Assembly (NCBI GenBank): GCA_038740375.1
Contig: JAVYLW010000003.1
Coordinates: 4,545-68,544, forward strand
Source of the DNA: Candidatus Pacearchaeota archaeon
GTDB lineage: Archaea; Nanobdellota; Nanobdellia; Pacearchaeales; GW2011-AR1
Direction of reading: 5' to 3'
Length of the DNA: 64,000 bases
Below, one piece after another: positions 24,842 through 64,000 of the stretch (position 1 is the first letter of the stretch; every line of letters begins with the position of its first letter). The position numbers and the translations under genes are program-made. The notes under the pieces are model-generated. The model made no database searches. It had not been told where the DNA came from and was given only the letters and a program-made list of their open reading frames with translations.

Positions 24842-24857
24842 TATAAAAATAACAAAA

Positions 24858-25484
24858 ATGAGAAAAAAAATTAAAAAACAAGATTTTACAAAAAGAAATA
24901 AAAAATTTGAAAATAACAAAAGAGCAGAGACTGAGCCATTAGGTTCAAATGTTGTCAACTTTGTAATTGGATTAATTGCATTAATAATTTTAATTGGAGT
25001 AGGTGTTATGGTTTATAAATTAATTTCTGTTAATTCAAGTGATGTTAAGACTGCAGAGGTGGTTGTTGAAAAAATAAGAAATATAATGGAAGAAGCTAAA
25101 AGAAATCCTGGGCAGGATTTTTTTTATGATGTTGAAGGTCCTGGAAATAAATGGTGGTGGATAATTGCTTGGCCTTATCAAAATAGAATAGAAAAACCTA
25201 TTAAATGTAATTTATACAGAAAATCTTGGTGTATATGTATTTGTGAAAGACCTTCTAACTTAAGAGTAGCTTGGAATTTGATTACTAGTAATTTAATGAT
25301 AAGAAGCATAACTACTTCATTACAAAAATGTAATAATAATGGAAGATGTTTAGAAGTAGAAAATCCTGTCAAAACAATTAATCAAGGCTATAATATGCCT
25401 ATTCCAATAGAATCTCCTCCAATTCAAATAAGTATAAAATATATTGATTCAGATAAAGGTTATGAAATAACTTTTGTAAAATAA
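24858..25484 (+). CDS. Pilin-like protein (208 aa)
   Basis: NNKRA/ETEPLGSNVVNFVIGLIALIILIGVGVMVY is class III-like. The globular part is Trp- and Cys-containing. Confidence 0.65.
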   Translation: MRKKIKKQDFTKRNKKFENNKRAETEPLGSNVVNFVIGLIALIILIGVGVMVYKLISVNSSDVKTAEVVVEKIRNIMEEAKRNPGQDFFYDVEGPGNKWWWIIAWPYQNRIEKPIKCNLYRKSWCICICERPSNLRVAWNLITSNLMIRSITTSLQKCNNNGRCLEVENPVKTINQGYNMPIPIESPPIQISIKYIDSDKGYEITFVK

Positions 25485-25511
25485 CTTTGTAAAATTGTTT
25501 ATATAAATAAA

Positions 25512-25631
25512 ATGAATAAAAATAATAAAGCTTTAATTGAAGAATTAGTTAAATATTTAATTTGGATATTTTTAGCTATTATATTAATACTTGCAGTTTA
25601 TTTCATAGGAAAAAATTTAAAATTGTTTTAA
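25512..25631 (+). CDS. Mini pilin-like peptide (39 aa); not in the ORF track
   Basis: Encodes MNKNNKA/LIEELVKYLIWIFLAIILILAVYFIGKNLKLF. It sits between two pilin-like genes with 27-nt and 7-nt gaps. Confidence 0.4.
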   Translation: MNKNNKALIEELVKYLIWIFLAIILILAVYFIGKNLKLF

Positions 25632-25638
25632 TAAAAAA

Positions 25639-26616
25639 ATGAAAAATAAAATAAATAAAAAAAGAGGTTCTATATTGCCAGATACTTCTGTAAAAATAAT
25701 AATTCTTGTAATAAGTTTTGTCATTTTATTATTAGCTATAGGTTATTTTGTTTATACTGATATTATAAAAAATTCAGGCTGTAAGGATTCTATTATTATT
25801 AGAAACAGCATTAATCTTGGTTTTTTGCCTGTAGATAATATTGTTCCTTTGAACTGTGTAACAAATAAAATTTGTTTAACTCAATCTGGAGAAAACTGCA
25901 AAAGATTTGGGAAACCTGATAAGAAACAATCTATTTTTAATAAAAAACTTGATAAAGATCCTGAAAAAGCAAAAAAACAAGTTATCGAAAAAATTGTTGA
26001 AGAAATGTTAACATGCCAAACTTTATTTACTAATGATAAAGGAGAACCCTATTATTTTATGCCTGCAAAGTGGTTTGATTTTAATAATAAATATTGTCTA
26101 ATTTGTTCTAGAATTGTTTTAGATGATGAAGCAAGAAAAAATATTAATGGAATTACTTATGGAGAATTATATCAAAAATTAGCAGAGAAAAAAATTCCTA
26201 ATGGAAGAAGTTATCTTGATTTTTTATATTCTGGATGGCAAGATTGGAGAAGAGCTCAAGACTTATACAGAGTTTTTAAAGATAAATATCCTGATAAAAT
26301 GCCTGATAAATTTGAGGATTGGAAAATTGATCTTTCTAAGGAAGATGGTATTGTGATTGTTGTTCAAATGACAACAAAAGGTTATTTAAACCAAATTTTA
26401 GCAAGTGGAGCTGTTTTACTTGGTAGTGCTTTGGTTTTGACATATATTGGAGCTCCAGTAGGTATAGCTTTAATAGGAGTAGGTACTAGCGCAGGAGTTA
26501 CTTTTTGGTATACTGCTCCTGATGAAAGATATCTATATTCACCTCCTGCAATATATGGAGGGGATATAGATACACTAAAAAGTTTAGAGTGCGATTCTTT
26601 TGAATTTTCTCCTTAA
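25639..26616 (+). CDS. Pilin-like protein (325 aa) with an additional C-terminal hydrophobic hairpin
   Basis: NKKRG/SILPDTSVKIIILVISFVILLLAIGYF at the N-terminus. ILASGAVLLGSALVLTYIGAPVGIALIGVGTSAGVTFWY near the C-terminus. Confidence 0.7.
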   Translation: MKNKINKKRGSILPDTSVKIIILVISFVILLLAIGYFVYTDIIKNSGCKDSIIIRNSINLGFLPVDNIVPLNCVTNKICLTQSGENCKRFGKPDKKQSIFNKKLDKDPEKAKKQVIEKIVEEMLTCQTLFTNDKGEPYYFMPAKWFDFNNKYCLICSRIVLDDEARKNINGITYGELYQKLAEKKIPNGRSYLDFLYSGWQDWRRAQDLYRVFKDKYPDKMPDKFEDWKIDLSKEDGIVIVVQMTTKGYLNQILASGAVLLGSALVLTYIGAPVGIALIGVGTSAGVTFWYTAPDERYLYSPPAIYGGDIDTLKSLECDSFEFSP

Positions 26617-26828
26617 TTATTTTTCATTATAATTTTTTAATTTTTATAATAAAAAATGTATTCATTTTTAATATTATTTTGTTAATTTCATTTGTATTAT
26701 TTAAACTTAAAATAAAATAGATTTTTTTTTAAATTGTTTAACAATTTTCGATTTTAAAAATTTTAAATTTTTTTCTAAATTAAATTTTAGAGAGATAAAT
26801 TTTTAATGTTAAATAACTTTGTCTATTA

Positions 26829-27293
26829 ATGAAAATAGAAAAGAGAAAAATGAATAAAATTGCTAGCGAAGTTTTATTGGGAGCGATCATCTTTTTGGTC
26901 GTTATTATTTTATTTGGTTCAATCTTAATTCTTTTTATATACAGGTTTGGTAAAACAGCTTCTATGTTTGAACAACTTTATTCAAAACAAATTGCTTTAA
27001 TGATAGACTATTCATTAACAGGCACTAATTTTAGTTTAGATATTTCAAAATTATATGAAGTTGCAAGAGAGAATAATTATAATGGTGAGTTAATTAAAAT
27101 AGATAATAATAACCATAATGTTTTTGTTAAATTAACTTCTGGAAAAGGTTATAGATATAAATATTTTAGCGATGCTGATGTTTTATGGAATATTAAACCT
27201 GAAGAAAAGAGATTGTATGTTACTATTTTGTCTAAAAATAAAGAAAATGTTATAAGAAATATTGAGCTATCTCAATATTTTGATGATATATGA
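26829..27293 (+). CDS. Pilin-like protein (154 aa)
   Basis: MNKIA/SEVLLGAIIFLVVIILFGSILILFIY. Confidence 0.65.
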   Translation: MKIEKRKMNKIASEVLLGAIIFLVVIILFGSILILFIYRFGKTASMFEQLYSKQIALMIDYSLTGTNFSLDISKLYEVARENNYNGELIKIDNNNHNVFVKLTSGKGYRYKYFSDADVLWNIKPEEKRLYVTILSKNKENVIRNIELSQYFDDI

Positions 27294-27327
27294 AAAAAAT
27301 TTTAGTTAATGATTAAGATTTTGGTTT

Positions 27328-27843
27328 ATGATAAAGATAATAAAAATTAATAAAATGAAGGCTAAAAAAATTTATAAGAATGCAAGTAGCAAAATACTTT
27401 CGTTTTGGTTAATCATCATTTTGTTTTTAATAGCTTTTGTTATTTCTATAGGAGTATTAGCTTTTTATTCTTCTGATATAGATGTTAGACAATTAGAGGC
27501 TAATTCAATGAATGATAAAATTATAATGTCTCTTTCTACAGGAGGTTATATAAATAATGAAGTTTTTAATAAAGACTCTAAAATTACTCAAATTGTTGAA
27601 ATATCTGATTTTGTCATAAGGGACAGCAAAGATTTTTATTTTAATGTTACAATATATAATTCTAATTATAGAGAATTAAGAAGTTTTGTTCTTGGAAATC
27701 CTGATTTTGAATTTCAGTGCAGGTTAAAAGGAAAGAAATATGCAAAATGTAGGGATAGTGAATTTATTTTGTTAAATAGAACAAATCCAGAAGAAAAATT
27801 CATAATTAAAGTTCTTACAGGATCAAATCAAAAAGGAGTTTAA
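27328..27843 (+). CDS. Pilin-like protein (171 aa)
   Basis: KIYKNA/SSKILSFWLIIILFLIAFVISIGVLAF. Confidence 0.65.
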   Translation: MIKIIKINKMKAKKIYKNASSKILSFWLIIILFLIAFVISIGVLAFYSSDIDVRQLEANSMNDKIIMSLSTGGYINNEVFNKDSKITQIVEISDFVIRDSKDFYFNVTIYNSNYRELRSFVLGNPDFEFQCRLKGKKYAKCRDSEFILLNRTNPEEKFIIKVLTGSNQKGV

Positions 27844-27848
27844 TAATT

Positions 27849-28415
27849 ATGAAAATTAAGAAAATCAAATTTAAAAAAGCAGTCATAGGAGATACTGTAA
27901 CATGGGTTGCAGCAATTATAATAATTGCAATCTTACTTTTTATTTATTTGTTAATAACTTTTTTTATGAGTGAGAAAAAATTTATTTTAAATAATTTTGA
28001 CATTAATTTAAAAGGAGAATATTATGGAGATGACTTTGCATTACTTGAAAGTATGTATTCTTTTTTAAATACACCTGTGGTATATGAAAATAAAAAGATG
28101 AGAATTCTTGATGCTTTGTTAAGTAAGAAAATTTCTGTCGATGATTACGAACTTTATAAAATAGTTAATGATACTATGAGTTTTTATTGTTCAGATTATT
28201 TTATATGGGTTCCTGATGTTCAATTTTTGCCGAAAGGTTTAGAGCCAAATTATTATGAAAAAGGAAGAATTTATTTTTTTAGAAGTAAAGATATTAATGA
28301 AAAAAATCCCTGGAATTATGGAGTTAATTATAGGCCTAATGAAGATGTTGAAGAAGTTTTTATAAGATACTCTACATTAAAAAGTTGCGTAGGTAGTAAA
28401 GATTTAACAAAATGA
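27849..28415 (+). CDS. Pilin-like protein (188 aa)
   Basis: KFKKA/VIGDTVTWVAAIIIIAILLFIYLLITFF. Starts 5 nt after the previous gene. Confidence 0.65.
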   Translation: MKIKKIKFKKAVIGDTVTWVAAIIIIAILLFIYLLITFFMSEKKFILNNFDINLKGEYYGDDFALLESMYSFLNTPVVYENKKMRILDALLSKKISVDDYELYKIVNDTMSFYCSDYFIWVPDVQFLPKGLEPNYYEKGRIYFFRSKDINEKNPWNYGVNYRPNEDVEEVFIRYSTLKSCVGSKDLTK

Positions 28416-28897
28416 TATTATTTAAAAAATATAATTATATCTGTAATAAAAAAGGTTTAATGTCAATTGCTACAGTATTATTAGTCTTATTAACTTTAGT
28501 TTTAATTGGAGTTGCTTTAGGAAATTTTGTTCTAAATGAAAGAAAACAAGCTTATTATTTTGAACTTCCTGTTCAAATTTATTATATGAATAATGAAGTT
28601 TTACGTTTAGATTTTTATTTGCAAGAACTTTTTGATAAGGCGCTAAAAGAAATGAAGCCTGACTTTAGTCCTCAGGATTTTATTAATAAATATATTGAAA
28701 ATATGGAAAACTATAAACCTCGTGAGATTAATATTTATAAAAGTCAAATATTAAGAGAACTAAACTTTGATAATATTTTTGTTGATAATGATAAAATAAC
28801 ATTTAAAATTAATATTTTGATTTCTAAAGAAAGCGAAGATAAAAATTTTAAAGTAAGTTACATTTATAGGAGGGAATTTGTAAAGAAACTTTCATAA
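28412..28897 (+). CDS. Pilin-like protein (161 aa)
   Basis: CNKKG/LMSIATVLLVLLTLVLIGVALGNF. ATGA start/stop overlap with the upstream gene. Confidence 0.65.
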   Translation: MILFKKYNYICNKKGLMSIATVLLVLLTLVLIGVALGNFVLNERKQAYYFELPVQIYYMNNEVLRLDFYLQELFDKALKEMKPDFSPQDFINKYIENMENYKPREINIYKSQILRELNFDNIFVDNDKITFKINILISKESEDKNFKVSYIYRREFVKKLS

Positions 28898-28936
28898 AAA
28901 GATTTTTAAATACTAAAGTTAATATTATTTTATTAA

Positions 28937-28943
28937 AAGAGGT
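28937..28943 (+). promoter_or_regulatory. Shine-Dalgarno-like AAGAGGT, 5 nt upstream of ATG 28949
   Basis: ttaaAAGAGGTaaaaaATG. Confidence 0.4.
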
Positions 28944-28948
28944 AAAAA

Positions 28949-29557
28949 ATGAATAAGCGCGGTGCTGAAATGACTATTGGAACGATTATTGTTATTATAC
29001 TAGCTTTAGTTGTTCTTGTTGTTATTATCTATGGATTTACAGTTGGTTGGAGTAATTTATGGCAGAAGATAACAGGATTTTCACCAAAATCAAATGTTCA
29101 TACTCATGTTCAAGCATGTCAAATTGCATGCACTTCTGAATCTAAATATGATTATTGCAAACCAAGACAAGTAATTTTTGAAGATAAAGGAAAACCTGTT
29201 CAATTTAGATCTTGCGAGGATTTGCAAATTCAGAGAGGATCTTCTATAGGTCTTGAGCCTTGTTTATCTATATCTTGTGCTGGAACTGAAGAAGCTGGTA
29301 GTTGTGAAAATATTGGTGGAAAATGGCAATTAGATCCTTGTTTAACTTCGTATCAATTAGATATAACTTCTAGAGTTACAAATAATTTTAATAAAGGTAA
29401 TAATAAGTTCTGTTGTCAAACTACATGCGCTCTTCTTAATGGAATATGGAGAGCTAGTCCTTGTGATGGAAGAACTGAAAATGATAGAACTGACGATATT
29501 ACTGATAAAGTGAGTGATAATCCTAATAACTATAGATTTTGCTGTGTTGCAAAATAA
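28949..29557 (+). CDS. Pilin-like protein (202 aa) with textbook class III signal peptide and Cys-rich head
   Basis: MNKRG/AEMTIGTIIVIILALVVLVVIIYGF. The remainder carries many Cys, including two aromatic-Cys-Cys motifs (KFCCQTTC, RFCCVAK). Confidence 0.8.
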   Translation: MNKRGAEMTIGTIIVIILALVVLVVIIYGFTVGWSNLWQKITGFSPKSNVHTHVQACQIACTSESKYDYCKPRQVIFEDKGKPVQFRSCEDLQIQRGSSIGLEPCLSISCAGTEEAGSCENIGGKWQLDPCLTSYQLDITSRVTNNFNKGNNKFCCQTTCALLNGIWRASPCDGRTENDRTDDITDKVSDNPNNYRFCCVAK

Positions 29558-30009: not shown

Positions 30010-30858
30010 ATGTTATTAAATTATGAAAATCTTTTTTTGATTATACTTGCTATTGTTTGGTTAGTTGGCGCTGTATTACAAGATTTAAAAAGACGTGAGG
30101 TAGATAATTTATGGAATTTTTCTTTAGTTATTTTTGCATTAGGATATAGATTCATTGTAATGTCTTATTCTGGAAATTACTGGTTTTTTATTAATGGAAT
30201 AATTGGAGTTGTAGTATTTTTTGTGTTAGGTAATTTATTTTATTATTCTAGGCTATTTGCCGGAGGAGATGCTAAACTTTTAATAGCATTAGGAGGAATA
30301 CTTCCTCTTAGTTATGATTGGATAATTAATGTTAAAATTTTTGGAATATATATATTATCTTTTTTATTTTTAGGTTCTTTATATGTATTAATCTGGGCTA
30401 TTTTTTTGATGTTTATTAATTGGAAAAAATTTAAAAAAGAATTTTTGAAGCAATGGAGAATTTATCATAATTATTTTTTTGTATTTTTTGTCATAATTCT
30501 TCTCTTTATATTAATTGTTTTATTGCTAGGTAAAAATATATTTGTTATTTTGGGAATAATTTTATCTTTATTTCCAGTTTTGTTTATATTTGCTAAATCT
30601 ATCGAAGAATCTTGCATGATAAAAGCATTAGATCCAAAAAAAATAACAGAAGGAGAATGGCTTTATAAAAATTTAAAAGTAGGTAAAAAGAAAATAATAG
30701 CAAATTGGGAGGGTATTTCTGAAGATGAATTAAGATTAATTAGAAATAAATATAAAAAGAAAGTATTAATTAAACAAGGAATTCCCTTTACTCCTAGTTT
30801 TTTGATAGGATTTTTGATTTTGTTATTTATTTTATGGAAATATAAACTTTTGTTTTAA
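30010..30858 (+). CDS. Prepilin/preflagellin peptidase (A24 family, PibD/FlaK/EppA-like)
   Basis: 282 aa polytopic protein. An Asp-containing first loop (VLQDLKRREVDN) and FAGGDAKLLIALGG give the two aspartyl motifs of A24 peptidases. The gene is adjacent to the pilin-like array. Confidence 0.8.
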   Translation: MLLNYENLFLIILAIVWLVGAVLQDLKRREVDNLWNFSLVIFALGYRFIVMSYSGNYWFFINGIIGVVVFFVLGNLFYYSRLFAGGDAKLLIALGGILPLSYDWIINVKIFGIYILSFLFLGSLYVLIWAIFLMFINWKKFKKEFLKQWRIYHNYFFVFFVIILLFILIVLLLGKNIFVILGIILSLFPVLFIFAKSIEESCMIKALDPKKITEGEWLYKNLKVGKKKIIANWEGISEDELRLIRNKYKKKVLIKQGIPFTPSFLIGFLILLFILWKYKLLF

Positions 30859-53855: not shown

Positions 53856-53876
53856 CCTTTGTATCAAACTCATTTT

Positions 53877-54194
53877 ATGAAACTTCCAAAGAAAACTAAT
53901 AGATATTGTCCTTTTTGTAAAAAAAGGACAGAACAAAAAATTGAATTAGTGTCAACTGGACATAAAAGAGGTGCTTTAAAATGGGGTTCTATAAATAGAG
54001 CGAAATTAAGAGGAGCTTTTCCTGGAAAAGGTAATAAACCAAAAGGAGGAAGCAAACCTGCTATTAAATCTTGGAAAAGGAAAACAAAAACAACTACGAG
54101 AAAAGTTTTAATTTATACTTGTCAATTATGTAAAAAATCAAAACATTCTAATAGATCTAGGAGGGTATCAAAGATAATTATCGGAGAAAAATAA
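53877..54194 (+). CDS. rpl44e: Ribosomal protein L44e
   Basis: MKLPKKTNRYCPFCKKRTEQK...YTCQLCKKSKH gives the two CxxC pairs and basic composition of L44e. The track start (TTG 53859) is replaced by ATG 53877. Confidence 0.8.
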   Translation: MKLPKKTNRYCPFCKKRTEQKIELVSTGHKRGALKWGSINRAKLRGAFPGKGNKPKGGSKPAIKSWKRKTKTTTRKVLIYTCQLCKKSKHSNRSRRVSKIIIGEK

Positions 54195-54986
54195 ATGGCA
54201 ACTAAAACTGATAAACAGATAATAAGAAGAAAAAAGTTCATTACAGTTGAATTACCTATAATAAATTTTAAAGTAGAATTAATTGGAAATTCAACTAAAG
54301 ATATTATTGGAAGGACAATAAAATTAGATTTAACTAGACAATTAAAGGGAAAAAGTGTTGAAATGACTTTTAAAACAAAATTGGAAAATGATAAAGTTAT
54401 AGGAGTTCCTTTTAAAATAAAACTTCTTTCATATTTTATTAGAAGAATGATTAGGAGAAGAATAAGTTATGTAGAAGATTCTTTTAATGTTCAATCAAGA
54501 GAAAGTCTATTAAAGATAAAACCTTTTTTAATAACTAAAAGAAAAGTTTCAAGAAGAATAAGAAAAACTTTAAGAAATAGAGCTAAAAACTGGATTATAG
54601 ATTATATTTCTGAAAGGAGCGATTATGAAATCTTTAATGATATTATTTCAAATAAAGTTCAAAAGATGTTATCATTATATTTAAAAAAGACATATCCTCT
54701 TTCATTATGTGAGATAAGAATTTTAGAGATTGTAAGATCTTTAAGTCCTGAAGAAATTTCTAAAATAGAAGTGAGTAAAAAAATTGATAAAAAAATAAAA
54801 GATCAAGATGCGGAATATGAAATTGATAATAAAGGATTTGATAAAGAAGAAATTGAAAATAAGGAAATAAAGGAAGCTCAGAGTGTAATATCTGAAACCC
54901 AGAAAAAAGCAATTGAAATACAGGAAAATAATCATGATAAAAAGATTAAAAAAACTACTAAAAAATTAAAAAAAAGAGAAAGTTGA
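54195..54986 (+). CDS. rps3ae: Ribosomal protein S3Ae (S1e) with Lys/Glu-rich C-terminal extension
   Basis: The ATG abuts the L44e stop. IGRTIKLDLT..., FIRRMIRRRISYVEDSF and KKTYPLSLCEIRILEIV match conserved S3Ae blocks. Confidence 0.8.
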   Translation: MATKTDKQIIRRKKFITVELPIINFKVELIGNSTKDIIGRTIKLDLTRQLKGKSVEMTFKTKLENDKVIGVPFKIKLLSYFIRRMIRRRISYVEDSFNVQSRESLLKIKPFLITKRKVSRRIRKTLRNRAKNWIIDYISERSDYEIFNDIISNKVQKMLSLYLKKTYPLSLCEIRILEIVRSLSPEEISKIEVSKKIDKKIKDQDAEYEIDNKGFDKEEIENKEIKEAQSVISETQKKAIEIQENNHDKKIKKTTKKLKKRES

Positions 54987-54989
54987 GGA
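54985..54989 (+). promoter_or_regulatory. Shine-Dalgarno-like GAGGA, 8 nt upstream of the ndk ATG 54998
   Basis: agttGAGGAaacagaaaATG, located within the end of the S3Ae gene. Confidence 0.45.
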
Positions 54990-54997
54990 AACAGAAA

Positions 54998-55492
54998 ATG
55001 GTAATTGAACAAACTCTTGTTTTAATAAAACCTGATGGAGTTGAGAGAGGTCTTGTTGGTGAAATTATTAAAAGATTTGAACAGAGAGGTTTAAAATTAG
55101 TTGCATTAAAACTTGTTAAAATAGGAAAAGATCATGCTTTAAAGCATTATACAGATGATTTAGCAAAGAGGAGAGGTGAGGCTGTTAGAGAAAAAATGGT
55201 TGATTTTATTACTTCAGGTCCTGTTGTTGCTATGATAATCGAGGGTGTTGATGCAGTTGAAAATGTAAGAAAAATAGTTGGTTCAACAGAATCAAAAGAA
55301 GCTTTGCCTGGTACAATTAGAGGAGATTTTTCTCATGTAAGTTTTTCTCATGCAGATGAGAATGAAACTATTGTAAAGAATATAATACATGCTTCGTCTA
55401 GTAAACAAGATGCTGAATATGAAACTAAACTTTGGTTTTCTTTAGAAGAAATACATTCTTATAAAAGAGTAGATGAGCATCATGTATTTTAA
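54998..55492 (+). CDS. ndk: Nucleoside diphosphate kinase
   Basis: EQTLVLIKPDGVERGLVGEII.RFE.RGLK, GPVVAMIIEG, TIRGDF and NIIHAS (active-site His). ATG 54998 is preferred to the track TTG 54983. Confidence 0.9.
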   Translation: MVIEQTLVLIKPDGVERGLVGEIIKRFEQRGLKLVALKLVKIGKDHALKHYTDDLAKRRGEAVREKMVDFITSGPVVAMIIEGVDAVENVRKIVGSTESKEALPGTIRGDFSHVSFSHADENETIVKNIIHASSSKQDAEYETKLWFSLEEIHSYKRVDEHHVF

Positions 55493-55602
55493 AATTTAAT
55501 AATCTTTAGATGTTCTATTTTTTTTGAAAGTTTATTTTTAAAATTAAATTATGTTTTAGTTTATAGAATATTTTTTAAACTCTTTTATTTATAATTTATT
55601 AT

Positions 55603-55675
55603 GCCTGCATAGCTCAGTTGGTAGAGCACCTGCCTTGTAAGCAGGGGGTCGTCGGTTCGATCCCGGCTGCAGGCT
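55603..55675 (+). tRNA. tRNA-Thr (anticodon UGU)
   Basis: Hand fold: acceptor GCCTGCA/TGCAGGC, D arm GCTC-AGTTGGTA-GAGC, anticodon arm CCTGC-CTTGTAA-GCAGG, variable GGGTC, T arm GTCGG-TTCGATC-CCGGC. Confidence 0.9.
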
Positions 55676-55806
55676 TTTTAGTATGAAATTTTTTACAATA
55701 GGTGTTAATAACTAGGAAAATTTATTTTTTATCATTATATATTTTAATTTAATCATTATTTTTTAGTTTAGATAAATTTAAATTTAGAATATTTTGCAGT
55801 AATATT

Positions 55807-56124
55807 ATGGTAGAATCATTTGATTTTAATTATGTATTTGATAATTTTAATAAATTTGATAAAGAAATTAGAAAAACTATAAAAAGACATTTTTTAACTT
55901 TAGGTAAAGAGAGTTTTTTATTAGGGCTTATATTAATATCTACCATATTATATTTTACTTTTATATTTAAAATTATTCCAATTTGGGTGGTTCCTTTTTT
56001 TGCTACATTTGGTTTAATTCTTTCTATAATGCAGATATTGAGACAAACACATGCTTTGGCTATCGCAGGTTTTATTTTGAATTTATTTGCTCTACTTATT
56101 TCTATGTTTTATTTAATCATTTAG
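55807..56124 (+). CDS. Small membrane protein (105 aa)
   Basis: ATG ORF with three hydrophobic segments in the C-terminal two thirds. Confidence 0.45.
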   Translation: MVESFDFNYVFDNFNKFDKEIRKTIKRHFLTLGKESFLLGLILISTILYFTFIFKIIPIWVVPFFATFGLILSIMQILRQTHALAIAGFILNLFALLISMFYLII

Positions 56125-56290
56125 TTCTTTATATTTTATATTTGTGATTATTTTTTTACAAATTTATATAATTGATAAGATTCTGATAAAGATATCAGTT
56201 TCTATAAATATTTACTAATATAGGATAGGTATTTCTTTGAATCTTTTATTACAATAAAATTAAAAAATAACTTTTTCTTATTAATTTTAA

Positions 56291-56361
56291 GGCCTCATAG
56301 TTCAGTGGTAAAACACCTCTTTGACGTGGAGGAGTCCCAAGTTCAATTCTTGGTGGGGCCA
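56291..56361 (+). tRNA. tRNA-Val (anticodon GAC)
   Basis: Hand fold: acceptor GGCCTCA/TGGGGCC (one G-U), short D stem GTT/AAC, anticodon arm CCTCT-TTGACGT-GGAGG, T arm CCAAG-TTCAATT-CTTGG, discriminator A. Confidence 0.8.
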
Positions 56362-56611
56362 TATTTAATAAAAATTATTTGAAATAATTAAAAACTTTTT
56401 TAGTATTTTTTATATTTAAAGATAAATTTCATCAATAATTAATTTCTTTAGAAATCTTTGTTTTTAAAAATAGTTAAGATAATCTTAATTTTACTTACTA
56501 ACTTACTTACTAATTAATTTAATAAATAAGAAAAATTTATATATTATCTATTATATCACTTTATATATATGTTATAATTTTATTACAATATATATAATCA
56601 AAAGAGGGGTT

Positions 56612-56758
56612 ATGAAAAAATATCTGTTATTAATAGAGGATGAAGAATTATGGCAAAAATTTAAGGATTCTATTGAAAAAGATATTAACAGTGAGATTAT
56701 TGAAATGATTAGGAAAAAAGTAAAAGATAAAAAAGAGGTAAAAGATGTTAAGAAATAA
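56612..56758 (+). CDS. Small ribbon-helix-helix-like protein (48 aa); not in the ORF track
   Basis: Encodes MKKYLLLIEDEELWQKFKDSIEKDINSEIIEMIRKKVKDKKEVKDVKK: a beta-strand-like start followed by two helices, an Arc/CopG-like layout. A purine-rich AGAGGGG lies 4 nt upstream. It overlaps the next gene by 14 nt. Confidence 0.4.
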   Translation: MKKYLLLIEDEELWQKFKDSIEKDINSEIIEMIRKKVKDKKEVKDVKK

Positions 56759-58640
56759 TTCTTTTATAAATAAGAAGTCGCAAATTACTTTATTTATCAT
56801 TTTTGTAATAGTTATTGTTGCACTTATTTTTTTATTTTTTATATTTAAGGGTAAAATTATTAGTTCTAATATTCCTAAGAATTTTGAACCTGTTTATACT
56901 CATTATCTCTCTTGTATTGATTATGAAGCTAAGAATGGGGCTTTGATTCTTGGAGAGACAGGAGGACATATTAAGGAAACTTCTTTTTCTCCTGGAAGTA
57001 TTTATATGCCTTTTTCATCTCATCTCGGATTTTTAGGAAATGCAATTCCTTATTGGTATTATGTTTCAGGAAACGGTCTTGTTTATGAGAAAATTCCAAG
57101 TATTAATGATATGCAAGATGAAATTTCAGAATATATAGAACAAAATATTTTAAGAAATTGTGATTTTTCATATTTTGAAAAACAAGGATATGAGATTAAT
57201 TTAAGTGAAGCTATTGTAACAAGTGAGATTAAAGAAAATGTTATAATTAGTAAGGTAAAACAAAATATTGAAATTAAATACGATAAAAAAAGTTGGACTG
57301 GTAAGAATCATATTGTAGAGACAAAATCTAATTTAGGAAAATTTTATAATTTGGCTATAAAAATTTATAATCATAATAAGAAAAATATGTTTTTGGAGAA
57401 ATACGGTGTTGATATTTTAAGATTATATGCTCCTGTTGACGGGGTTGAAATTTCCTGTTCTCCAAAAATATGGTTTTTAACTCAAGTAAGAGAAAATTTA
57501 ATTCAGGCATTAGAGGCAAATATTCCTAAAATAAAAATTGATGGAGATTATTATAGACTTGAAAATAAAGATAATAAATATTATGTTCAAAATATTGGAG
57601 AAAAAACTCCTTTTAATGTTAATTTTATGTATTCTAGATATTGGCCTATGAAAATTGAAGTATGGCCTAGTGAAGATAATGTTCTAAGAGCTGATCCTGT
57701 AGGAATTCAAGAAGGTTTAGGAATACTTGGATTTTGTTATGTCCCTTATCATTTTGTATATGATTTTCATTTTCCTGTTTTGATACAAATATATTCTCAA
57801 GGAGAAATTTTTCAGTTTCCTGTTGTGGTAATAATAGATAAGAATCAGCCTAGAAAAGCACTTGATGGAAGTAGTGGTCCTAATATTGTTCCTGACTTGT
57901 GTTTGCGTAAAAATACAAAAATTACAATCTATACTTATAATAATAGTTTAAGTCCTATTCCAGCAAGAATAAAATTCAAATGTTTTGATAATACTTGCTA
58001 TATTGGAGAGGTAAGTGGAAACGGAGCTCCTTTAATTTCTGAATTTCCGCAATGTGGAAATGGATATATTATTGCTTCAAGTGATGGATATGAAACAAGA
58101 AAAGAGTTAATTTCAACTATAAATGAGGGAAGTTATAATATCTTTTTAGATAAAAAGTATAAGTTGAGTGTCGAAGTTAGGAATAAAGGAAACAAACTTG
58201 ATAAAAAAGCAATTATTACTTTTTCAAAAGAAAATGGTACTTCAACGACTGTTTCTTATCCAGATGTTAAGGAGATAGAATTAACAGAGGGTGAATATAA
58301 AGTTGTTGCTTATATTTATACAAATACAAGTTTATATTTGAAAGGTGGAAGCATGCGAAAATGTGTTGATGTTCCTAAAAGTAATATCTTCGGTTTTTTT
58401 GGAATTACAGAGGAGAAATGTTTTGATATGCAAATACCCGGTCAGACTATTGATATGGCAATTGCAGGCGGAGGTACTCAAAAAACTTATTTTCCTGAAT
58501 CAAGATTGTCAAGTTCGAAAAAGTTGATTATAGAACCTGAATTTTTTAATAATCCTAAAAAAATTGAAGATTTGCAAACAAACTTTAATTTGGTTGACAT
58601 TTCACATTTAAATTTTTATTTTGAAGAAAATGAAAATTAA
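56745..58640 (+). CDS. Large exported protein (631 aa) with prepilin-like N-terminus
   Basis: MLRNNSFINKKS/QITLFIIFVIVIVALIFLFFIF resembles the class III signal peptides of the 23271-29557 array. No known domain is recognised in the remainder. Confidence 0.75.
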   Translation: MLRNNSFINKKSQITLFIIFVIVIVALIFLFFIFKGKIISSNIPKNFEPVYTHYLSCIDYEAKNGALILGETGGHIKETSFSPGSIYMPFSSHLGFLGNAIPYWYYVSGNGLVYEKIPSINDMQDEISEYIEQNILRNCDFSYFEKQGYEINLSEAIVTSEIKENVIISKVKQNIEIKYDKKSWTGKNHIVETKSNLGKFYNLAIKIYNHNKKNMFLEKYGVDILRLYAPVDGVEISCSPKIWFLTQVRENLIQALEANIPKIKIDGDYYRLENKDNKYYVQNIGEKTPFNVNFMYSRYWPMKIEVWPSEDNVLRADPVGIQEGLGILGFCYVPYHFVYDFHFPVLIQIYSQGEIFQFPVVVIIDKNQPRKALDGSSGPNIVPDLCLRKNTKITIYTYNNSLSPIPARIKFKCFDNTCYIGEVSGNGAPLISEFPQCGNGYIIASSDGYETRKELISTINEGSYNIFLDKKYKLSVEVRNKGNKLDKKAIITFSKENGTSTTVSYPDVKEIELTEGEYKVVAYIYTNTSLYLKGGSMRKCVDVPKSNIFGFFGITEEKCFDMQIPGQTIDMAIAGGGTQKTYFPESRLSSSKKLIIEPEFFNNPKKIEDLQTNFNLVDISHLNFYFEENEN

Positions 58641-61600
58641 TGAAAAATATAAGTGTGTATTTAAATTGGATAATAAAAAAATTAGGCAGATTTTTTATTT
58701 TGTAATATTTTTAATTTTGATTCATATTCCTTTGATTAATTCTCAATCAATGTATTCTTCTAGTTTTAATGATGTTTCTTCATCAAGCTCATCTTTTAAT
58801 GTTCAACCAGGTTCTTCTAGTTTTTCTGGAAAAACTTACGGAGGTAGTAGTTTTAGCGGTGGAGTATATGGAGCTTCGATAGGTCCTCAATTTAATAATC
58901 CTGGATTTTATATTGGACCTGGATTTGTTTCTCCTGAAGTATATTGGCCTAAATTTAATAAAGAAGATTGTTTTGAAAGAGCAGATTTTATAATGCAGAT
59001 TGCTCCAGGAGGATGCACTCCTGCTGTTGTTAGATCTGATTTATTAGAAGAGCAAGATGTTCCTGTTTTTTGTAAAGTAATGTCAGTAACAGTTAATCCA
59101 CTGATTGATGTTTCTAGAATTAGAAGTATATATTTTAGAGGTAATAATCCTGCAGGAGTTTCTGGAATATCTTATTTTCCTGCACGAGCTGCTTTGAATA
59201 GTCAACAGACATTAATTAGTTCTCCAATTAATGATAATTTAGGTTATGTTGTTATAGTTTTGTCAAGAAAACAATCTGAAAAAGATATGCCTGATTTTAT
59301 TGAAGGAAACATAACTGCTGTAGTTGATTATGATGTTCAAGGAGCTTTTGGTATAGGAAATACGAATTTTTATATTAATGAGATGAGTGATGAAGAATGG
59401 TATAGAAATTATAAACAATATGGCTTTTGGAACGGTAAGGGTTATATTAGAGCTGATTCAATAGAGCCTGACAAAGCAACAATATCTATTTATAGAGATT
59501 CTGAACAAAGAATTTATTCGATTACACTTAAGAAAGGAGAAACATCAGGAGATATTTATTTAAATGGTTTTTATTGTGCTGCTGGATTGAATTTAAGACT
59601 TGAAAATATAGGAGCTCCTGTTGATTCAGCCTTATTGCAGATTAATGATCAACAAATTTGGGTTTCTAGAGGAGATAGGTTGATGAATAATAGATGTACT
59701 GTCACTAATTTAGAGGCTTATAATAATGGAGGAAAGATAAGTATTAGCTGTCCTGTTAGAAATGGAAGAATTGATCTTTCTTTAAATTCTGGAAGAGCTA
59801 ACTTAAGTGTTAATGGTTTAGACTATAAGTTATATTCAATTGGAGATGTTGTAAAATTAGGAAATGAAAATGAAGGAAACTGGTATTTAGGATATGTTGG
59901 TCAAGATTATAAGGGAAATGATTTTGTTGTTATTGTTCAAGATGAATATTCTGATACATATTATGAATTTAGCGATAAAGACGTTTTTAATACTGTTCAA
60001 GGAGTTTTATCAAAATCTACTATCTTAATAAGCGAAGAGCAGCTTCAAAAACAGATTAAAGAAGCAATTATAAAACAGTATACTATTAAATTAAGAGGTA
60101 TTTCTTCTGTAAGAGGAATTGAAGATAAATTAAAAGTATGCATAACAACTAAAGAAAGCTCTGATTGTGGAATAAGTATTGCAGATATATTAACTGCAAA
60201 AGATAGAGTTTGGGATTTAACAAAAGAAGATGAGAAAATAACAAAAGAATATTATGATTGGGCTATAAAATATTACGAGGATTTAATTTCTCTATATCCT
60301 GGAGAAAAAAGAGTTCAAGGTTCAAGCGAAGATAGTTATTCTGCTATGGCTCTATATGAAGCAGCTATAATGTCAAGAAGATTTGGAATGAATGAAAAAT
60401 CTCAAGAGTATTTAAATAAACTTTTAAGAGATTATCCTAATACTTTTTTAGCTAATAAAGTAGCAAGAGATGTTGAATTGTTGAATAAATATGGTTCTTC
60501 TAACTCAAGAGCTACTGTGCAAATTGGGACTGATAATTATTTTGTTGAATTATTAGACTTTAAAAAACCAACTAGATTTGATGCAAGTGCAACTTTGTTG
60601 ATAAACGGGAAAGAAACTGAAATAGGATTAAATGAGATTATTAATATAGGAATATCTAATGGAAGCTCTAGAAATATACAATTATCTGAGATTAACACAG
60701 ATTATGTAGTTTTGAAATATTCTAAAACTGCTTTAGAGAGATTTTATACTAGTTCAGATTATAAAACAGAAAGGCTAAATCTTCATGCGCAAACAGATGT
60801 TGATGGAGTTAGAGTTAAGCTAGTTAATATAAACCTTAAGGAACAAGCTAAAATATCTATAATTCCAAAAATGTTTGGACCAAGATCAGAGGCTAATTTT
60901 ACATTTAGAATCGGAATTGAAAAAAGGGCAATAAAATTATCTACTCAGCAGACAAAAGATTTGATAGAAAATCTTAAAAAAAATATAAAAGAATGGGAAA
61001 ATATTAATAATAAATTGGGAAAAATTGTAAGTTCAATGAAGGGTGCTTGTTTTGCTACTTCTGCTATGTTAACTGTTAAAAATCTAGTAAATGGCTGGAG
61101 TGGAGAATCTATGGCTAGAAAAGAAGTTATGACTAAATCAGGAGGTTGGAATGAGTTTTGCGAAAAGTTAGTTAGTGATAAAACTAGTTCTCCTTTAAAT
61201 GGAAAATCTTATACAGATTCAACAGTGCAAAAATGTCTTTTAGATCATGACTCTTATATTTCTAAAGATGTAGAGATATATAAGAATCAAATAGAAAAAA
61301 CTAATGATTTGATAAAACAAATACAAAAACAAGTAGGAATTCAGAAAACTGATATTTTAGATATGACAGGGCAAGTAGATTCTAGAAAAGTTGAAGATGA
61401 ATTTGCAAAAAAATTCAAGGAATTTTGCTTAAATTCTAAGGGAAGTATTACTCTTCCAGATGCATTTAATACCACAATTAATTTAGGAAAAGAAGGAGGT
61501 ATGTGTGATTGGGATACTCTTACTCAAGAACAAAGAAGGCAGATAATGACCTTAGTTAATACAAGGGACAGTATTTCAAGCCTAGGTGGAAGTTCTATTC

Positions 61601-64000
61601 TTCAGAATATGATTGATAAAGATCTTGGAAGGGTAGTTTTAGATTCAAAAAATTTTTGGGAAAATGAGGGTGCAAGAAGAAGAAATGAAGAAGAAAGAAA
61701 AAAGAATAATATGGGTATAAGAGCAATTGTTCCTGGCGGAGACAGAATTACCTACGGAGACATTAAAATAGTTACTAAAGGTGATTCTAATCATAATATT
61801 TATAAAAATTATAATGTAGGACAAGCTGTAATTTTAATTAATGTTCCTTTTAGGGAGAGTTATGCAGGACATGCTTTTGAAGCAGATTCTGAAGTTGCTG
61901 GAAAACAAGTTACTGTTCCTTTAATAAGACAGCCTGGAGGAGATTATACTGTAGATCCTAAAGGTGAAATATATTTAGTAGAAAGTGGTAAATTAGTTTC
62001 TGATAATGGTGCAAGGTCTGTTAGAGATTATATGAGTTTAAAAGGTATTATTAGATTTAGAGAGTCTAACGCGAAAGTCTATCAGAATAAGATTTTAAAT
62101 CCAGAGGATATGAGAGTTAAATATTTTGAAAGAGCACCTTATAAAGGTCTTCCTGCAGAAGTTCCTTTTGATGTTGAAAACGGATGGTATGTTGAATTAA
62201 CATACGAGCTATCAGGATTTGGAAGACCTTATGATGAGTCTGGAAGAGTTGTTAATTTTTGGATATGTAATGTTGGACCTAATGGAGCGATTGATTTTCA
62301 GAAAAGTTTAGATGACATTTGTAGATATTATAATGGACAAGCAACAGGAGAATTAGGTTTTGGAATTGATCCTTCTGAAGAAAGAAATCTTATAATGAGA
62401 GCTCAACAGGCAATATACGATGCTGCTAAACAATATGGTAAAGATAGAGTTATTATTAATGGTTATAGTTTTAAATCAGGAACTGCATTTGGAGGAGAAC
62501 AAGGAAGATGCAGTGATTTTATGAGTCCTTCTGATTGCAATATTTTGTTTAATGTTTGTGATCCTGTGATGTGTCCTTCTTCAAGATGTGATTTAGGAGG
62601 TGAATTTAGAGTTGATAATGTTGTTCAAACCGGAATAATAGGTAGTTTATTATTATGTTTACCAAATTATAAAGAAGGAATAGTTGTTCCAATATGTTTA
62701 TCTGGAGTTCATGCTGGAATTGAGGGTTATATTAGTATTATGAACTCTACAGTTGCTTGTTTAAATGAAAGTTTAACAACAGGAAGAAATATTGGAATCT
62801 GTGATGAAATTAAAAGTATATACTTATGCGAATTTTTCTGGAAGCAAGCTACACCTTTAATGAATATTCTGATTCCTAGAATGGTTGAATCTTTTTATGG
62901 TCAGGGAGTTAGAGGAGGAGGAGAATATTCAACTGTTCAAGAAGCTTGGAATAATATGCAGTCAAGTATAAAATATTTTACAAACGAATATGCTGTAAAT
63001 TCAATGACAGCATTTCAGGCAAGATCTATAGATAGTGTTGGAAGTGAAATATGTAAATCATTTAATTCAGTAACATATCCTAGTTCAAAAGATTTTTTTG
63101 ATAGATTAATAGAGCCAGATAGTCCTGTTCAATTTACTGGATGGTTTTCAGAAGATCAATATACTACAGCAACTATTCCTGCAACTTCTCATTATAAAGT
63201 TTATTTTCACATTTATGCAGGAAAAGATCAAGGTGCTTATTATACTGTTTATTTGAAAGATGTTCCTCCTATTAACAATATTTTTTTAAATCAAATTTAT
63301 GTTGTTGATAGAGGCTATGTTTCTCGAGGAAGTCAGGTTGATAGAGCAATAGACTTTACAGGAGTTTCTGGTTACAAACAAATGTGTATAAATATAAATG
63401 GAAAAGATGAATGCGGTTTTGGAAAAGTTTCAACCTCTTTTTTAATAAATAGCATTTCTGATGCATATGCAGAAGAACAAGCAAATACTTTAAATATTAA
63501 AACTTCAAAAGAATGTGTTGCTGGAACTCCATCATTAATATCTGCTATAAATCCAAGTTTACAACAAGGTGCTCAAGATATCATTGATCCTCAAATGTAT
63601 AACTATGGAATAATTAGAGTATGTTCTACTGAAAATCCTGGTAAAAGAGTGCTTCCTAGTGGAGAGTTTGATACTACAAACTCTACTTTTGATAGATGGA
63701 AAGAAGTAGGATATTGTGATGATCCTACAATAAAATGTTGGCTCGATACGAGTTCTGTTAAAAATGTTATTAAGAATAAAGGAATATTGAATAAAACTTT
63801 ACAAAACATAGATTTAAATGTTTTAGGAGAAATTGATTTTTGGACTCCTGAACAGAGTACTAGTGTTGCAGCAGAATCGCAAAAAGAAATTGAATCTTTA
63901 ATTATAAATCCTGGAGAAAATAAACTTTCTATTGAAAATAAGATATCTCCAATAGTTAAAAAATTAAGAGATCTTTCTAATTTAGGCCCTTCCAATAAAT
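58630..64000 (+). CDS. Giant secreted Cys-rich protein, 3'-truncated by the window edge (at least 1790 codons); not in the ORF track
   Basis: ATG 58630 overlaps the upstream gene by 11 nt, and the frame stays open to position 64000 (checked codon by codon). Sec-type signal (IFYFVIFLILIHIPLINSQS), Ser/Gly-rich segment, a TPR-like stretch (YYDWAIKYYEDLISLYPG...ALYEAAIMSRRFG...YLNKLLRDYPN), and many Cys clusters (e.g. CSDFMSPSDCNILFNVCDPVMCPSSRCD). Confidence 0.85.
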   Translation, partial: MKINEKYKCVFKLDNKKIRQIFYFVIFLILIHIPLINSQSMYSSSFNDVSSSSSSFNVQPGSSSFSGKTYGGSSFSGGVYGASIGPQFNNPGFYIGPGFVSPEVYWPKFNKEDCFERADFIMQIAPGGCTPAVVRSDLLEEQDVPVFCKVMSVTVNPLIDVSRIRSIYFRGNNPAGVSGISYFPARAALNSQQTLISSPINDNLGYVVIVLSRKQSEKDMPDFIEGNITAVVDYDVQGAFGIGNTNFYINEMSDEEWYRNYKQYGFWNGKGYIRADSIEPDKATISIYRDSEQRIYSITLKKGETSGDIYLNGFYCAAGLNLRLENIGAPVDSALLQINDQQIWVSRGDRLMNNRCTVTNLEAYNNGGKISISCPVRNGRIDLSLNSGRANLSVNGLDYKLYSIGDVVKLGNENEGNWYLGYVGQDYKGNDFVVIVQDEYSDTYYEFSDKDVFNTVQGVLSKSTILISEEQLQKQIKEAIIKQYTIKLRGISSVRGIEDKLKVCITTKESSDCGISIADILTAKDRVWDLTKEDEKITKEYYDWAIKYYEDLISLYPGEKRVQGSSEDSYSAMALYEAAIMSRRFGMNEKSQEYLNKLLRDYPNTFLANKVARDVELLNKYGSSNSRATVQIGTDNYFVELLDFKKPTRFDASATLLINGKETEIGLNEIINIGISNGSSRNIQLSEINTDYVVLKYSKTALERFYTSSDYKTERLNLHAQTDVDGVRVKLVNINLKEQAKISIIPKMFGPRSEANFTFRIGIEKRAIKLSTQQTKDLIENLKKNIKEWENINNKLGKIVSSMKGACFATSAMLTVKNLVNGWSGESMARKEVMTKSGGWNEFCEKLVSDKTSSPLNGKSYTDSTVQKCLLDHDSYISKDVEIYKNQIEKTNDLIKQIQKQVGIQKTDILDMTGQVDSRKVEDEFAKKFKEFCLNSKGSITLPDAFNTTINLGKEGGMCDWDTLTQEQRRQIMTLVNTRDSISSLGGSSILQNMIDKDLGRVVLDSKNFWENEGARRRNEEERKKNNMGIRAIVPGGDRITYGDIKIVTKGDSNHNIYKNYNVGQAVILINVPFRESYAGHAFEADSEVAGKQVTVPLIRQPGGDYTVDPKGEIYLVESGKLVSDNGARSVRDYMSLKGIIRFRESNAKVYQNKILNPEDMRVKYFERAPYKGLPAEVPFDVENGWYVELTYELSGFGRPYDESGRVVNFWICNVGPNGAIDFQKSLDDICRYYNGQATGELGFGIDPSEERNLIMRAQQAIYDAAKQYGKDRVIINGYSFKSGTAFGGEQGRCSDFMSPSDCNILFNVCDPVMCPSSRCDLGGEFRVDNVVQTGIIGSLLLCLPNYKEGIVVPICLSGVHAGIEGYISIMNSTVACLNESLTTGRNIGICDEIKSIYLCEFFWKQATPLMNILIPRMVESFYGQGVRGGGEYSTVQEAWNNMQSSIKYFTNEYAVNSMTAFQARSIDSVGSEICKSFNSVTYPSSKDFFDRLIEPDSPVQFTGWFSEDQYTTATIPATSHYKVYFHIYAGKDQGAYYTVYLKDVPPINNIFLNQIYVVDRGYVSRGSQVDRAIDFTGVSGYKQMCININGKDECGFGKVSTSFLINSISDAYAEEQANTLNIKTSKECVAGTPSLISAINPSLQQGAQDIIDPQMYNYGIIRVCSTENPGKRVLPSGEFDTTNSTFDRWKEVGYCDDPTIKCWLDTSSVKNVIKNKGILNKTLQNIDLNVLGEIDFWTPEQSTSVAAESQKEIESLIINPGENKLSIENKISPIVKKLRDLSNLGPSNK

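Follow-up and report, generated by a model that had tools for sequence, protein, structure and literature searches.

What do three overlapping genes of an uncultivated archaeon do together when none of them has a named relative? The question is raised by a 64,000-nucleotide (nt) stretch of a Candidatus Pacearchaeota genome (assembly GCA_038740375.1, contig JAVYLW010000003.1, positions 4,545 to 68,544 of the forward strand), which is called the window here and has a GC content of about 24%. A small open reading frame (ORF) in the window overlaps the gene for a 631-amino-acid (aa) protein by 14 nt (56745-56758), and this gene overlaps that of a giant protein by 11 nt (58630-58640). An earlier reading of the window, made from its letters without database searches (the sequence-only reading), had noted the three ORFs with these overlaps, and we recovered the same coordinates when all of them were re-read.

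56612-56758, + strand: small ORF, 48 aa; predicted cytoplasmic protein with no signal peptide, MKKYLLLIEDEELWQKFKDSIEKDINSEIIEMIRKKV and a Lys-rich tail
56745-58640, + strand: 631-aa ORF with an ATG start; predicted surface protein with a class III-type signal
58630-64000, + strand: giant ORF, ATG at 58630; 1,790 codons open to the window end
56603-56609, + strand: Shine-Dalgarno-like AGAGGGG, read off the sequence, ending 2 nt ahead of the small-ORF ATG
56735-56739, + strand: Shine-Dalgarno-like GAGGT, read off the sequence, within the small ORF and 5 nt ahead of the ATG that starts the 631-aa ORF

The full-length giant in the source genome has 1,937 aa (P0121), 1,790 of which are encoded in the window, and the operon spans about 7.8 kb. 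The 631-aa protein is identical to hypothetical protein QXW97_02070, encoded on a 137-kb contig of a Candidatus Pacearchaeota metagenome-assembled genome (MAG), and the giant is QXW97_02075. The position of GAGGT within the small ORF is consistent with translational coupling to the 631-aa gene.

The answer that we favor, with moderate confidence, is that these genes form a vertically inherited, self-regulated operon of Pacearchaeota and Woesearchaeota that builds an anchored complex on the cell surface. In this model, the 48-aa Lys-tailed cytoplasmic protein would bind an array of about ten tetramers that abuts the TFB-recognition element (BRE) and TATA box, and it would thereby control its own operon. 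As the array extends into the BRE, occlusion of TFB/TBP, and hence repression, would be the likeliest mode. The 631-aa protein would be inserted with its N-terminus in the cytoplasm, and an A24 prepilin peptidase would remove its basic leader between an A, G or S residue and Gln (S12 and Q13 in the window protein). The mature protein would then be held by a 22-residue N-terminal helix, with its alpha/beta and beta-sandwich domains displayed outside. The disulfide-rich 1,937-aa giant would be exported via Sec and kept on the cell by binding its 631-aa partner, and the overlapping start and stop codons would keep the two proteins made together. The observations behind this model are the anatomy of the genes, the signal motifs, the finding that both the pair and the trio are conserved, the joint occurrence of small ORF and repeat array, and the lack of any known homolog.

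Conservation of the arrangement was assessed by scanning one genome per species for relatives of the 631-aa protein, which gave 406 stretches, and analyzing the best 80 loci. In 77 of the 80 a homolog of the giant is encoded after the 631-like gene, the other three stop at a contig edge, and the pair is adjacent in 77/77 informative loci, an arrangement beyond chance. With start codons picked heuristically, 26 of the junctions between the two genes have a 4-nt overlap, and about 57 lie between an overlap of about 40 nt and a spacing of 25 nt. A small-ORF homolog occurs directly upstream of the 631-like gene in 40/80 loci, where the overlap with the 631 start is mostly 4-14 nt, and L070 has a truncated copy at a contig edge. 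Its presence or absence was scored in 77 loci, with 40 having it and 37 lacking it. On long contigs the order is always the small ORF, then a gene of about 615 aa, then the giant. These junctions, together with the contexts of the related loci, uphold the earlier proposal of a tightly packed and probably co-translated unit that is conserved as such. Co-occurrence across archaeal MAGs, which had been suggested as a check, holds for the pair in every informative locus and for the trio in only 40 of the 77 scored.

The neighbors of the module in relatives are housekeeping genes (L44e-S3Ae-NDK, SRP54/FtsY and TFIIB). The L44e-S3Ae-NDK genes of the window, which were assigned by eye, lie just upstream at 53859-55492, and synteny with them is kept in distant relatives (L001, L083-L088), on the same strand in the window and divergently in the relatives examined. 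This housekeeping synteny and the tight, conserved junctions argue for a vertically inherited core module and not an accessory island.

All three families, by the labels of their members, are large, unnamed and restricted to DPANN archaea. For the 631-aa protein there are more than 2,417 homologs, and the top 120 are full-length, 50-67% identical, unnamed or "hypothetical", and derived from Pacearchaeota, Nanoarchaeia or "archaeon" MAGs. There are 603 homologs of the giant, at about 1,850-2,400 aa, and 2,555 homologs of the small protein, at 42-62 aa. The best 80 loci are labelled Pacearchaeota, Woesearchaeota, Nanoarchaeota or "archaeon", with the single exception of a Dojkabacteria bin. In that case (L019, JAFCCB010000019.1) the whole archaeal module is on a contig filed as "Candidatus Dojkabacteria bacterium", which is probably mis-binned. 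With the giant core as query, an exhaustive HMMER search returned 1,105 representative clusters at E<=1e-3, and 948 of these reach E<=1e-30. Full-length homologs have the core at about residues 1,000-1,900, and no other architectures were seen. These results mark the giant family as sharply bounded.

Scans of all three proteins against Pfam, NCBIfam and PHROGs gave nothing over any curated cutoff, and the same was true of family scans with the full-length 631-like and giant pair from the relative L001. Profile searches with all three families against PDB sequences found no match. The giant has a TPR_6 match below cutoff (19.3 bits versus 26.3) that covers about 30 residues, which explains why it is named a "TPR repeat protein" in some sources. 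A literature search found no description of the module. The sequence-only reading did not recognize the combination of three genes as a described system, and these family, PDB-sequence and literature results agree with it. The parts are of known kinds, namely a small autoregulator, a surface protein with a class III signal and a Sec-secreted giant, and none belongs to a described family. The unusual features are an operator-like array with a 4-bp period that is phased with the TATA box and a conserved giant that is near-universal.

Is the 631-aa protein anchored by a signal of the prepilin type? Its N-terminus and one gene elsewhere in the window bear on this point.

56772-56846, + strand: class III signal core, K10-K11-S12 / Q13-ITLFIIFVIVIVALIFLFFIF; predicted cleavage between S12 and Q13, then 22 hydrophobic residues
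30010-30858, + strand: Peptidase_A24 (prepilin peptidase) gene, 282 aa; candidate processing enzyme, outside the operon

The N-terminal consensus among 108 homologs is [KR][KR]-[A/G/S]-Q-[V/I]-T-[I/V]-F-I-I and continues with about 15 further hydrophobic residues. The +1 position is Q in 108/108, the -1 position is restricted to A (48), G (42) and S (18), and +3 is T or S in 104. A K or R is found at -2 in 88 of these homologs (K in the window protein), and the leader ahead of the motif has a variable length of about 10 to 60 residues. The Q13-ITLFIIFVIVIVALIFLFFIF stretch reaches a Kyte-Doolittle maximum of 3.66. The narrow choice of residues at -1, the invariant Q at +1 and the variable leader indicate a class III (prepilin-peptidase) site instead of a generic anchor. 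This motif agrees with the experimentally supported archaeal pilin sites KG/QV and RA/QI, where the slash marks the cut, and the peptidase EppA requires Gln at +1 (PMC4371748). The sequence-only reading had proposed a prepilin-type N-terminus and a peptidase at 30010-30858 that might process it. The motif profile bears out the first point, and the peptidase gene is confirmed by Pfam (PF01478, 32.7 bits versus a cutoff of 26.5).

It is unlikely, in our judgment, that the N-terminus is instead a plain uncleaved signal anchor in which K-K-S-Q is conserved for topology or for partner binding. Such an anchor would fit the Ser, and not Gly or Ala, at -1 in the window protein and the lack of a match to Pfam Class_IIIsignal, and the positive-inside rule alone would account for the K/R residues. 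However, where a leader of 10-60 aa is hypervariable and the residues next to it are an A, G or S and an invariant Gln, the pattern is that of a peptidase site and not that of a topology signal.

Several homologs (P0026, P0054, P0101, P0117, P0021, P0034 and P0053) have leaders of 40-60 aa with one or two extra units of the form ...NS[RH]F.F...SK[RS]S before the final SKRS/Q, as if the leader and cleavage motif had been tandemly duplicated. The idea that long leaders are fused, degenerate small ORFs was rejected (best E=0.021 among 24 leaders).

Beyond the signal, all 10 Cys of the 631-aa protein are invariant. Its AlphaFold (AF2) model has a mean confidence (pLDDT) of 74.5 and shows a helix at 10-35, a low-confidence break at 36-47 and a second helix at 48-71. 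These are accompanied by an alpha/beta domain at about 48-365 and C-terminal beta-sandwich domains at about 390-630. Foldseek searches with this model against PDB and BFVD returned only generic tandem beta-sandwiches (TM score <=0.19).

The giant begins with a Sec-type signal peptide, and its main landmarks are as follows.

58630-58743, + strand: Sec-type signal peptide predicted from sequence, about residues 1-38
62050-63999, + strand: Cys-rich and most conserved core, residues 1141-1790, defined by invariant columns
62509-62829, + strand: densest Cys cluster, residues 1294-1400

The signal peptide ends in V-x-A/Q in the family consensus and in I-N-S/Q in the window copy. No second hydrophobic segment is present in the part encoded by the window, and the full-length homolog from L001 has no C-terminal anchor. 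These two giants are 54% identical across 1,747 residues. The conserved blocks of the family lie at about residues 85-400, 740-1000 and 1150-1720, and the C-terminal tail is variable. There are 33 Cys in the part of the giant within the window, and the conserved Cys of the family comprise 28 that are invariant and two that are nearly so. A predicted Sec signal and about 30 conserved Cys support the description of the giant as a secreted Cys-rich protein. The giant is exported and lacks an anchor, and its gene comes right behind that of an anchored protein to which its translation is coupled; this combination suggests that the two proteins form a complex at the surface.

One form of such a complex would be a surface layer (S-layer) similar to that of SlaA/SlaB, with the giant as the outer lattice and the 631-aa protein as the membrane stalk. 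An anchorless large subunit and an anchored smaller one, co-transcribed from a single-copy locus in the core genome that is near-universal in the clade, would suit this role. The operon promoter is near consensus, and an S-layer protein has been determined for no DPANN archaeon (2023 preprint, 10.1101/2023.10.27.564410). However, S-layer proteins usually diverge fast, and identity here is 42-67% across orders. About 30 conserved Cys are atypical of S-layer proteins, and the anchor is N-terminal and of class III type where that of SlaB is a C-terminal transmembrane segment. Searches of Pfam, NCBIfam and PDB sequences reveal no similarity to known S-layer families, and the proposed DPANN candidates NEQ300 and MJ1_0160 are Ig-fold proteins of about 1,000 aa, which is another kind of protein. 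A true S-layer thus seems to us improbable.

The sequence-only reading had proposed a different association, in which the 631-aa protein links the giant to the pilus system of the window. In its fullest form, the 631-aa protein would be a true but unusually large minor or tip pilin that is built into a filament, and the giant would be an adhesin borne by the pilus. The genes that make this conceivable are found elsewhere in the window.

10894-13179, - strand: T2SSE-type ATPase gene
23465-29557: cluster of ORFs with pilin-like N-termini ([KR][GA], then a hydrophobic stretch)

Together with the A24 peptidase, the ATPase and the several pilin-like N-termini (at about 23-30 kb) put a pilus system in the same window. 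The class III site of the 631-aa protein has Gln at +1 as in EppA-type pilins (PMC4371748), and Gram-positive pilus adhesins are among the best domain-level Foldseek matches of its model. Yet these matches are generic beta-sandwiches with TM scores of about 0.12. The module is never beside pilus genes in relatives, where ribosomal, SRP and TFIIB genes are found instead, and the pilus genes of the window are 26-45 kb away. A structural type IV pilin would have about 100-250 aa in all and a continuous alpha-1 helix of about 50 residues that packs against a small head of beta-sheet. With 631 aa the protein is 3-5 times as large as archaeal pilins, and the break at 36-47 leaves no continuous pilin-type alpha-1 helix in its model, by which it is not a typical pilin. 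Large non-pilins with class III signals are also known, for example in the Sulfolobus bindosome (PMC4371748). The pilin-like ORFs of the 23465-29557 cluster have no Gln at +1 and, one marginal case apart, no match in Pfam. A link to the pilus system finds no comparative support, and we consider it quite unlikely that the 631-aa protein is a pilin. One ORF in this cluster (458 aa, 23465-24841) has a match to Defensin_beta_2 that is marginally over cutoff (23.4 bits versus 22.2).

The remaining member of the module is the 48-aa protein. Its homologs in 40 loci are 65-82% identical and start with ATG, or GTG in one case. Pairwise differences at codon positions 1, 2 and 3 are 0.23, 0.11 and 0.46, compared with 0.66 in unaligned upstream DNA, and this pattern indicates purifying selection on the ORF. 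By this measure the small ORF is a real gene, conserved at the protein level. Upstream of it is a repeat that is placed against the predicted promoter.

56491-56530: array of ten T[TA]A[CG] units (TTAC TTAC TAAC TTAC TTAC TAAT TAAT TTAA TAAA TAAG); candidate operator that abuts or overlaps the BRE-like AAGAAA
56527-56543, + strand: BRE-like TAAGAAAAA and then TATA box TTTATATA (56536-56543); predicted operon promoter
56560-56567: second TATA-like box; either box may serve as the promoter in the window

TATA-like strings are frequent in a genome with 24% GC, which is a caveat for the promoter assignment in the window. The array, on the other hand, is tightly associated with the small ORF. An array of about ten tetramers is present in 40/40 loci that have the ORF, as well as in the window, and in 0/37 that lack it (Fisher p=8e-23). 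In the loci among L003-L081 that have the ORF, it occupies the equivalent position. In the related loci, about 1.05 Mb in total, each of the 37 strong matches to the array is followed 75-189 nt downstream by the start of a small ORF, and the 64-kb window contains exactly one match when both strands are counted. The consensus TAAGAAAnn followed by TTTATATA is kept at the end of the array across 41 sequences (the 40 loci and the window). Array and TATA box hold a constant register, and within the repeat unit positions 1 (T) and 3 (A) carry about 1.8-2.0 bits and position 4 about 0.2-0.6 bits. The 4-nt period also places TAA/TAG stops in all frames of both strands.

Loci that have the small ORF and loci that lack it are mixed over the whole neighbor-joining tree of the 631 family, which implies that the regulator and the array are ancestral and have been lost together many times. 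Of the 30 loci without any upstream regulator gene, 25 (for example, L001, L004, L018, L021, L023 and L026) have the TATA box TTTATATA upstream of the 631 start codon at a distance of exactly 29 nt. This spacing suggests a leaderless mRNA after regulator loss. Seven other loci (L014, L020, L025, L030, L039, L042 and L048) have a gene for a winged helix-turn-helix (wHTH) protein of 62-74 aa in the slot of the small ORF, with matches to HTH_11 (27.8 bits) and HTH_24 (22.3 bits) that are both over cutoff. This gene overlaps or abuts the 631 start (as at L020:4703-4924), and the same loci have ATTGCTTATCAAT-like sites of their own at about -97 and about -37, with a density of 7.9 per kb versus a background of 0.148 per kb. 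The case that this slot is one for a transcription regulator rests most strongly on its takeover by a bona fide DNA-binding protein.

The sequence-only reading had called the small protein RHH-like (ribbon-helix-helix). By eye this layout could fit, with MKKYLLLIE as a strand followed by two helices and INSEII resembling the VNSEIY of Arc. The label has no profile support: one of 23 members matches PF03869 (Arc) at E=0.05 with none reaching cutoff, and hhalign probabilities against one Arc and one CopG sequence are 3.9% and 1.1%, which is not significant. The other half of the description fares better, since the operator-like array is co-inherited with the small gene and a wHTH gene can take over its slot, and the small protein probably does bind DNA.

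If the 48-aa product instead served the exported proteins as a cytoplasmic chaperone or targeting factor, or if the small ORF were a leader for coupling, then the array would be an independent promoter element. The lack of a match to a DNA-binding family and the constant overlap with the downstream start, as a coupling ORF would have, are compatible with this interpretation. Against it, co-occurrence with the array is perfect and unique, the two are lost jointly and repeatedly, and the slot can be taken by a wHTH gene with its own sites. The small protein is also more conserved (65-82%) than its neighbor, which a coupling ORF would not need. We therefore see little prospect that it is something other than a transcription factor.

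Finally, the giant is very unlikely to be a secreted effector, enzyme or toxin used against hosts or competitors with the 631-aa protein as its export or activation partner: its secretion, missing anchor and variable C-terminal tail and a precomputed Peptidase_M10 match in one homolog (P0217) would agree with such a role, but neither the window giant nor that of L001 matches a catalytic family, no immunity-like gene is conserved downstream, and a single-copy gene in core synteny that is evenly conserved is unlike polymorphic toxins. The Peptidase_M10 match (PF00413) in P0217, a giant homolog of 2,099 aa, is absent from the window copy and may be an inserted domain. These alternatives concern different steps of the surface-complex model and are not mutually exclusive.

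Several points weigh against the model of a self-regulated surface operon. DNA binding, signal cleavage, the physical complex, its location at the surface and the biological role as a major envelope or host-contact structure are steps that we infer. The pair can do without the small gene, as about half of the lineages show; absence was scored within 1.5 kb upstream, and the gene could sit elsewhere in those genomes. Where it is present, its product has no significant match to any DNA-binding family. A strict [GA] rule of the FlaFind type would reject the Ser at -1 in the window protein. Because other pilin-like genes of the window lack Gln at +1, the general specificity of the window peptidase does not explain why this residue is invariant in the 631 family. 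For the giant core, the AF2 model is poor (pLDDT 55.7, and about 30 over the densest Cys cluster) and says nothing about the fold; a fold search with it gave no match at E<=1e-3, a result that is limited by the poor model.

What, then, might the operon mean to the cell? A central role in the cell envelope is probable, because about 7.8 kb of sequence is kept at 42-67% identity over hundreds of species in a housekeeping setting. Published Pacearchaeota genome bins are smaller than 1 Mb, at 0.72 and 0.88 Mbp (PMC11537232). The operon is a good candidate for a major cell-surface structure of Pacearchaeota and Woesearchaeota, which are among the most widespread uncultivated archaea. We know of no surface-layer or host-attachment protein that has been identified for either group. 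More speculatively, the pair could be the principal envelope or host-contact apparatus, either the missing S-layer or a structure that docks to and opens the host cell. It would have a partly hydrophobic core of about 110 residues and ten Cys with a fold unlike any solved, and the 48-aa protein would be the first member of a class of very small DNA-binding proteins that polymerize on an operator with a 4-bp period phased with the BRE and TATA box. We hold this extended version only tentatively and think it doubtful as a whole. The two surface proteins provide targets for antibodies, for labelling in cryo-electron tomography and for metaproteomic peptides, and the 48-aa protein with its 40-bp array is an easily testable protein-DNA pair. 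The joint loss of regulator and array and their replacement by an unrelated wHTH protein form a natural experiment in archaeal promoter rewiring.

Other features surround the module. Three of them lie between the NDK block and the small ORF in the window.

55603-55675: tRNA-Thr
55807-56124: ORF for a 105-aa membrane protein
56291-56361: tRNA-Val

An Rfam scan of 55500-56900 found only the two tRNAs and no other RNA element. In some relatives, restriction-modification genes (DNA_methylase and RE_Bsp6I) and a GmrSD gene are near the module (L083:4307-5308, L083:6368-6916; L086:1-1734). A conserved fourth gene in the gaps of 100-830 nt between some 631-like and giant genes was ruled out, as the genes inserted there are unrelated (L011:9851-10217, L032:9809-10088, L073:3166-3503, L077:2242-3073 and L006:9866-10067). 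Judged by eye only, these inserts are MazG-like in L011 and L032, GIY-YIG-like in L073 and Bro-N/KilA-like in L077.

How does this operon compare with known systems? For the regulator and its array, the RHH repressor omega of plasmid pSM19035 is a close precedent, as it coats arrays of 7-bp heptads beside promoters. Both are very small proteins encoded first in an operon, with about ten short, contiguous repeats that abut the promoter. Here, in contrast, the unit is 4 bp, the promoter has an archaeal BRE and TATA box, RHH homology is not detectable, and binding is a prediction.

The signal of the 631-aa protein resembles that of the EppA-type pilins of Methanococcus maripaludis in having a near-identical site with an invariant Gln at +1 and Ser or Thr at +3. 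It differs in lacking Glu at +5, and the protein is 3-5 times larger and is not encoded with pilus genes. EppA itself is described as a much larger prepilin peptidase than the 282-aa A24 enzyme of the window (PMC4371748). The closest functional analogy for the 631-aa protein may be found among large non-pilin class III substrates such as the bindosome proteins of Sulfolobus, non-pilins of about 600 aa that have a prepilin-type signal and would likewise be retained at the surface by a hydrophobic N-terminus. Unlike these, the 631-aa protein has no substrate-binding-protein fold or Pfam domain and no adjoining ABC transporter or Bas genes, and its partner is a giant secreted protein.

The taxonomic distribution and the lack of annotation of the three families are those of Module 98, a set of 51 protein families, mostly of unknown function, that are common to Pacearchaeota and Woesearchaeota (Castelle et al. 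2021, PMC8204110). The three may belong to this set, although the paper lists anonymous families and does not describe the operon. As a whole, the gene pair is reminiscent of SlaA/SlaB of Sulfolobales, in which a large, anchorless exported subunit and a smaller anchored subunit with beta-sandwiches are likewise encoded by adjacent, co-expressed genes. There is no similarity in sequence or fold between the two pairs, and the N-terminal class III-type helix found here takes the place of the C-terminal transmembrane segment with coiled coil of SlaB. The pair described here is also far more conserved than S-layer proteins are, rich in conserved Cys, and equipped with a dedicated small regulator gene upstream.

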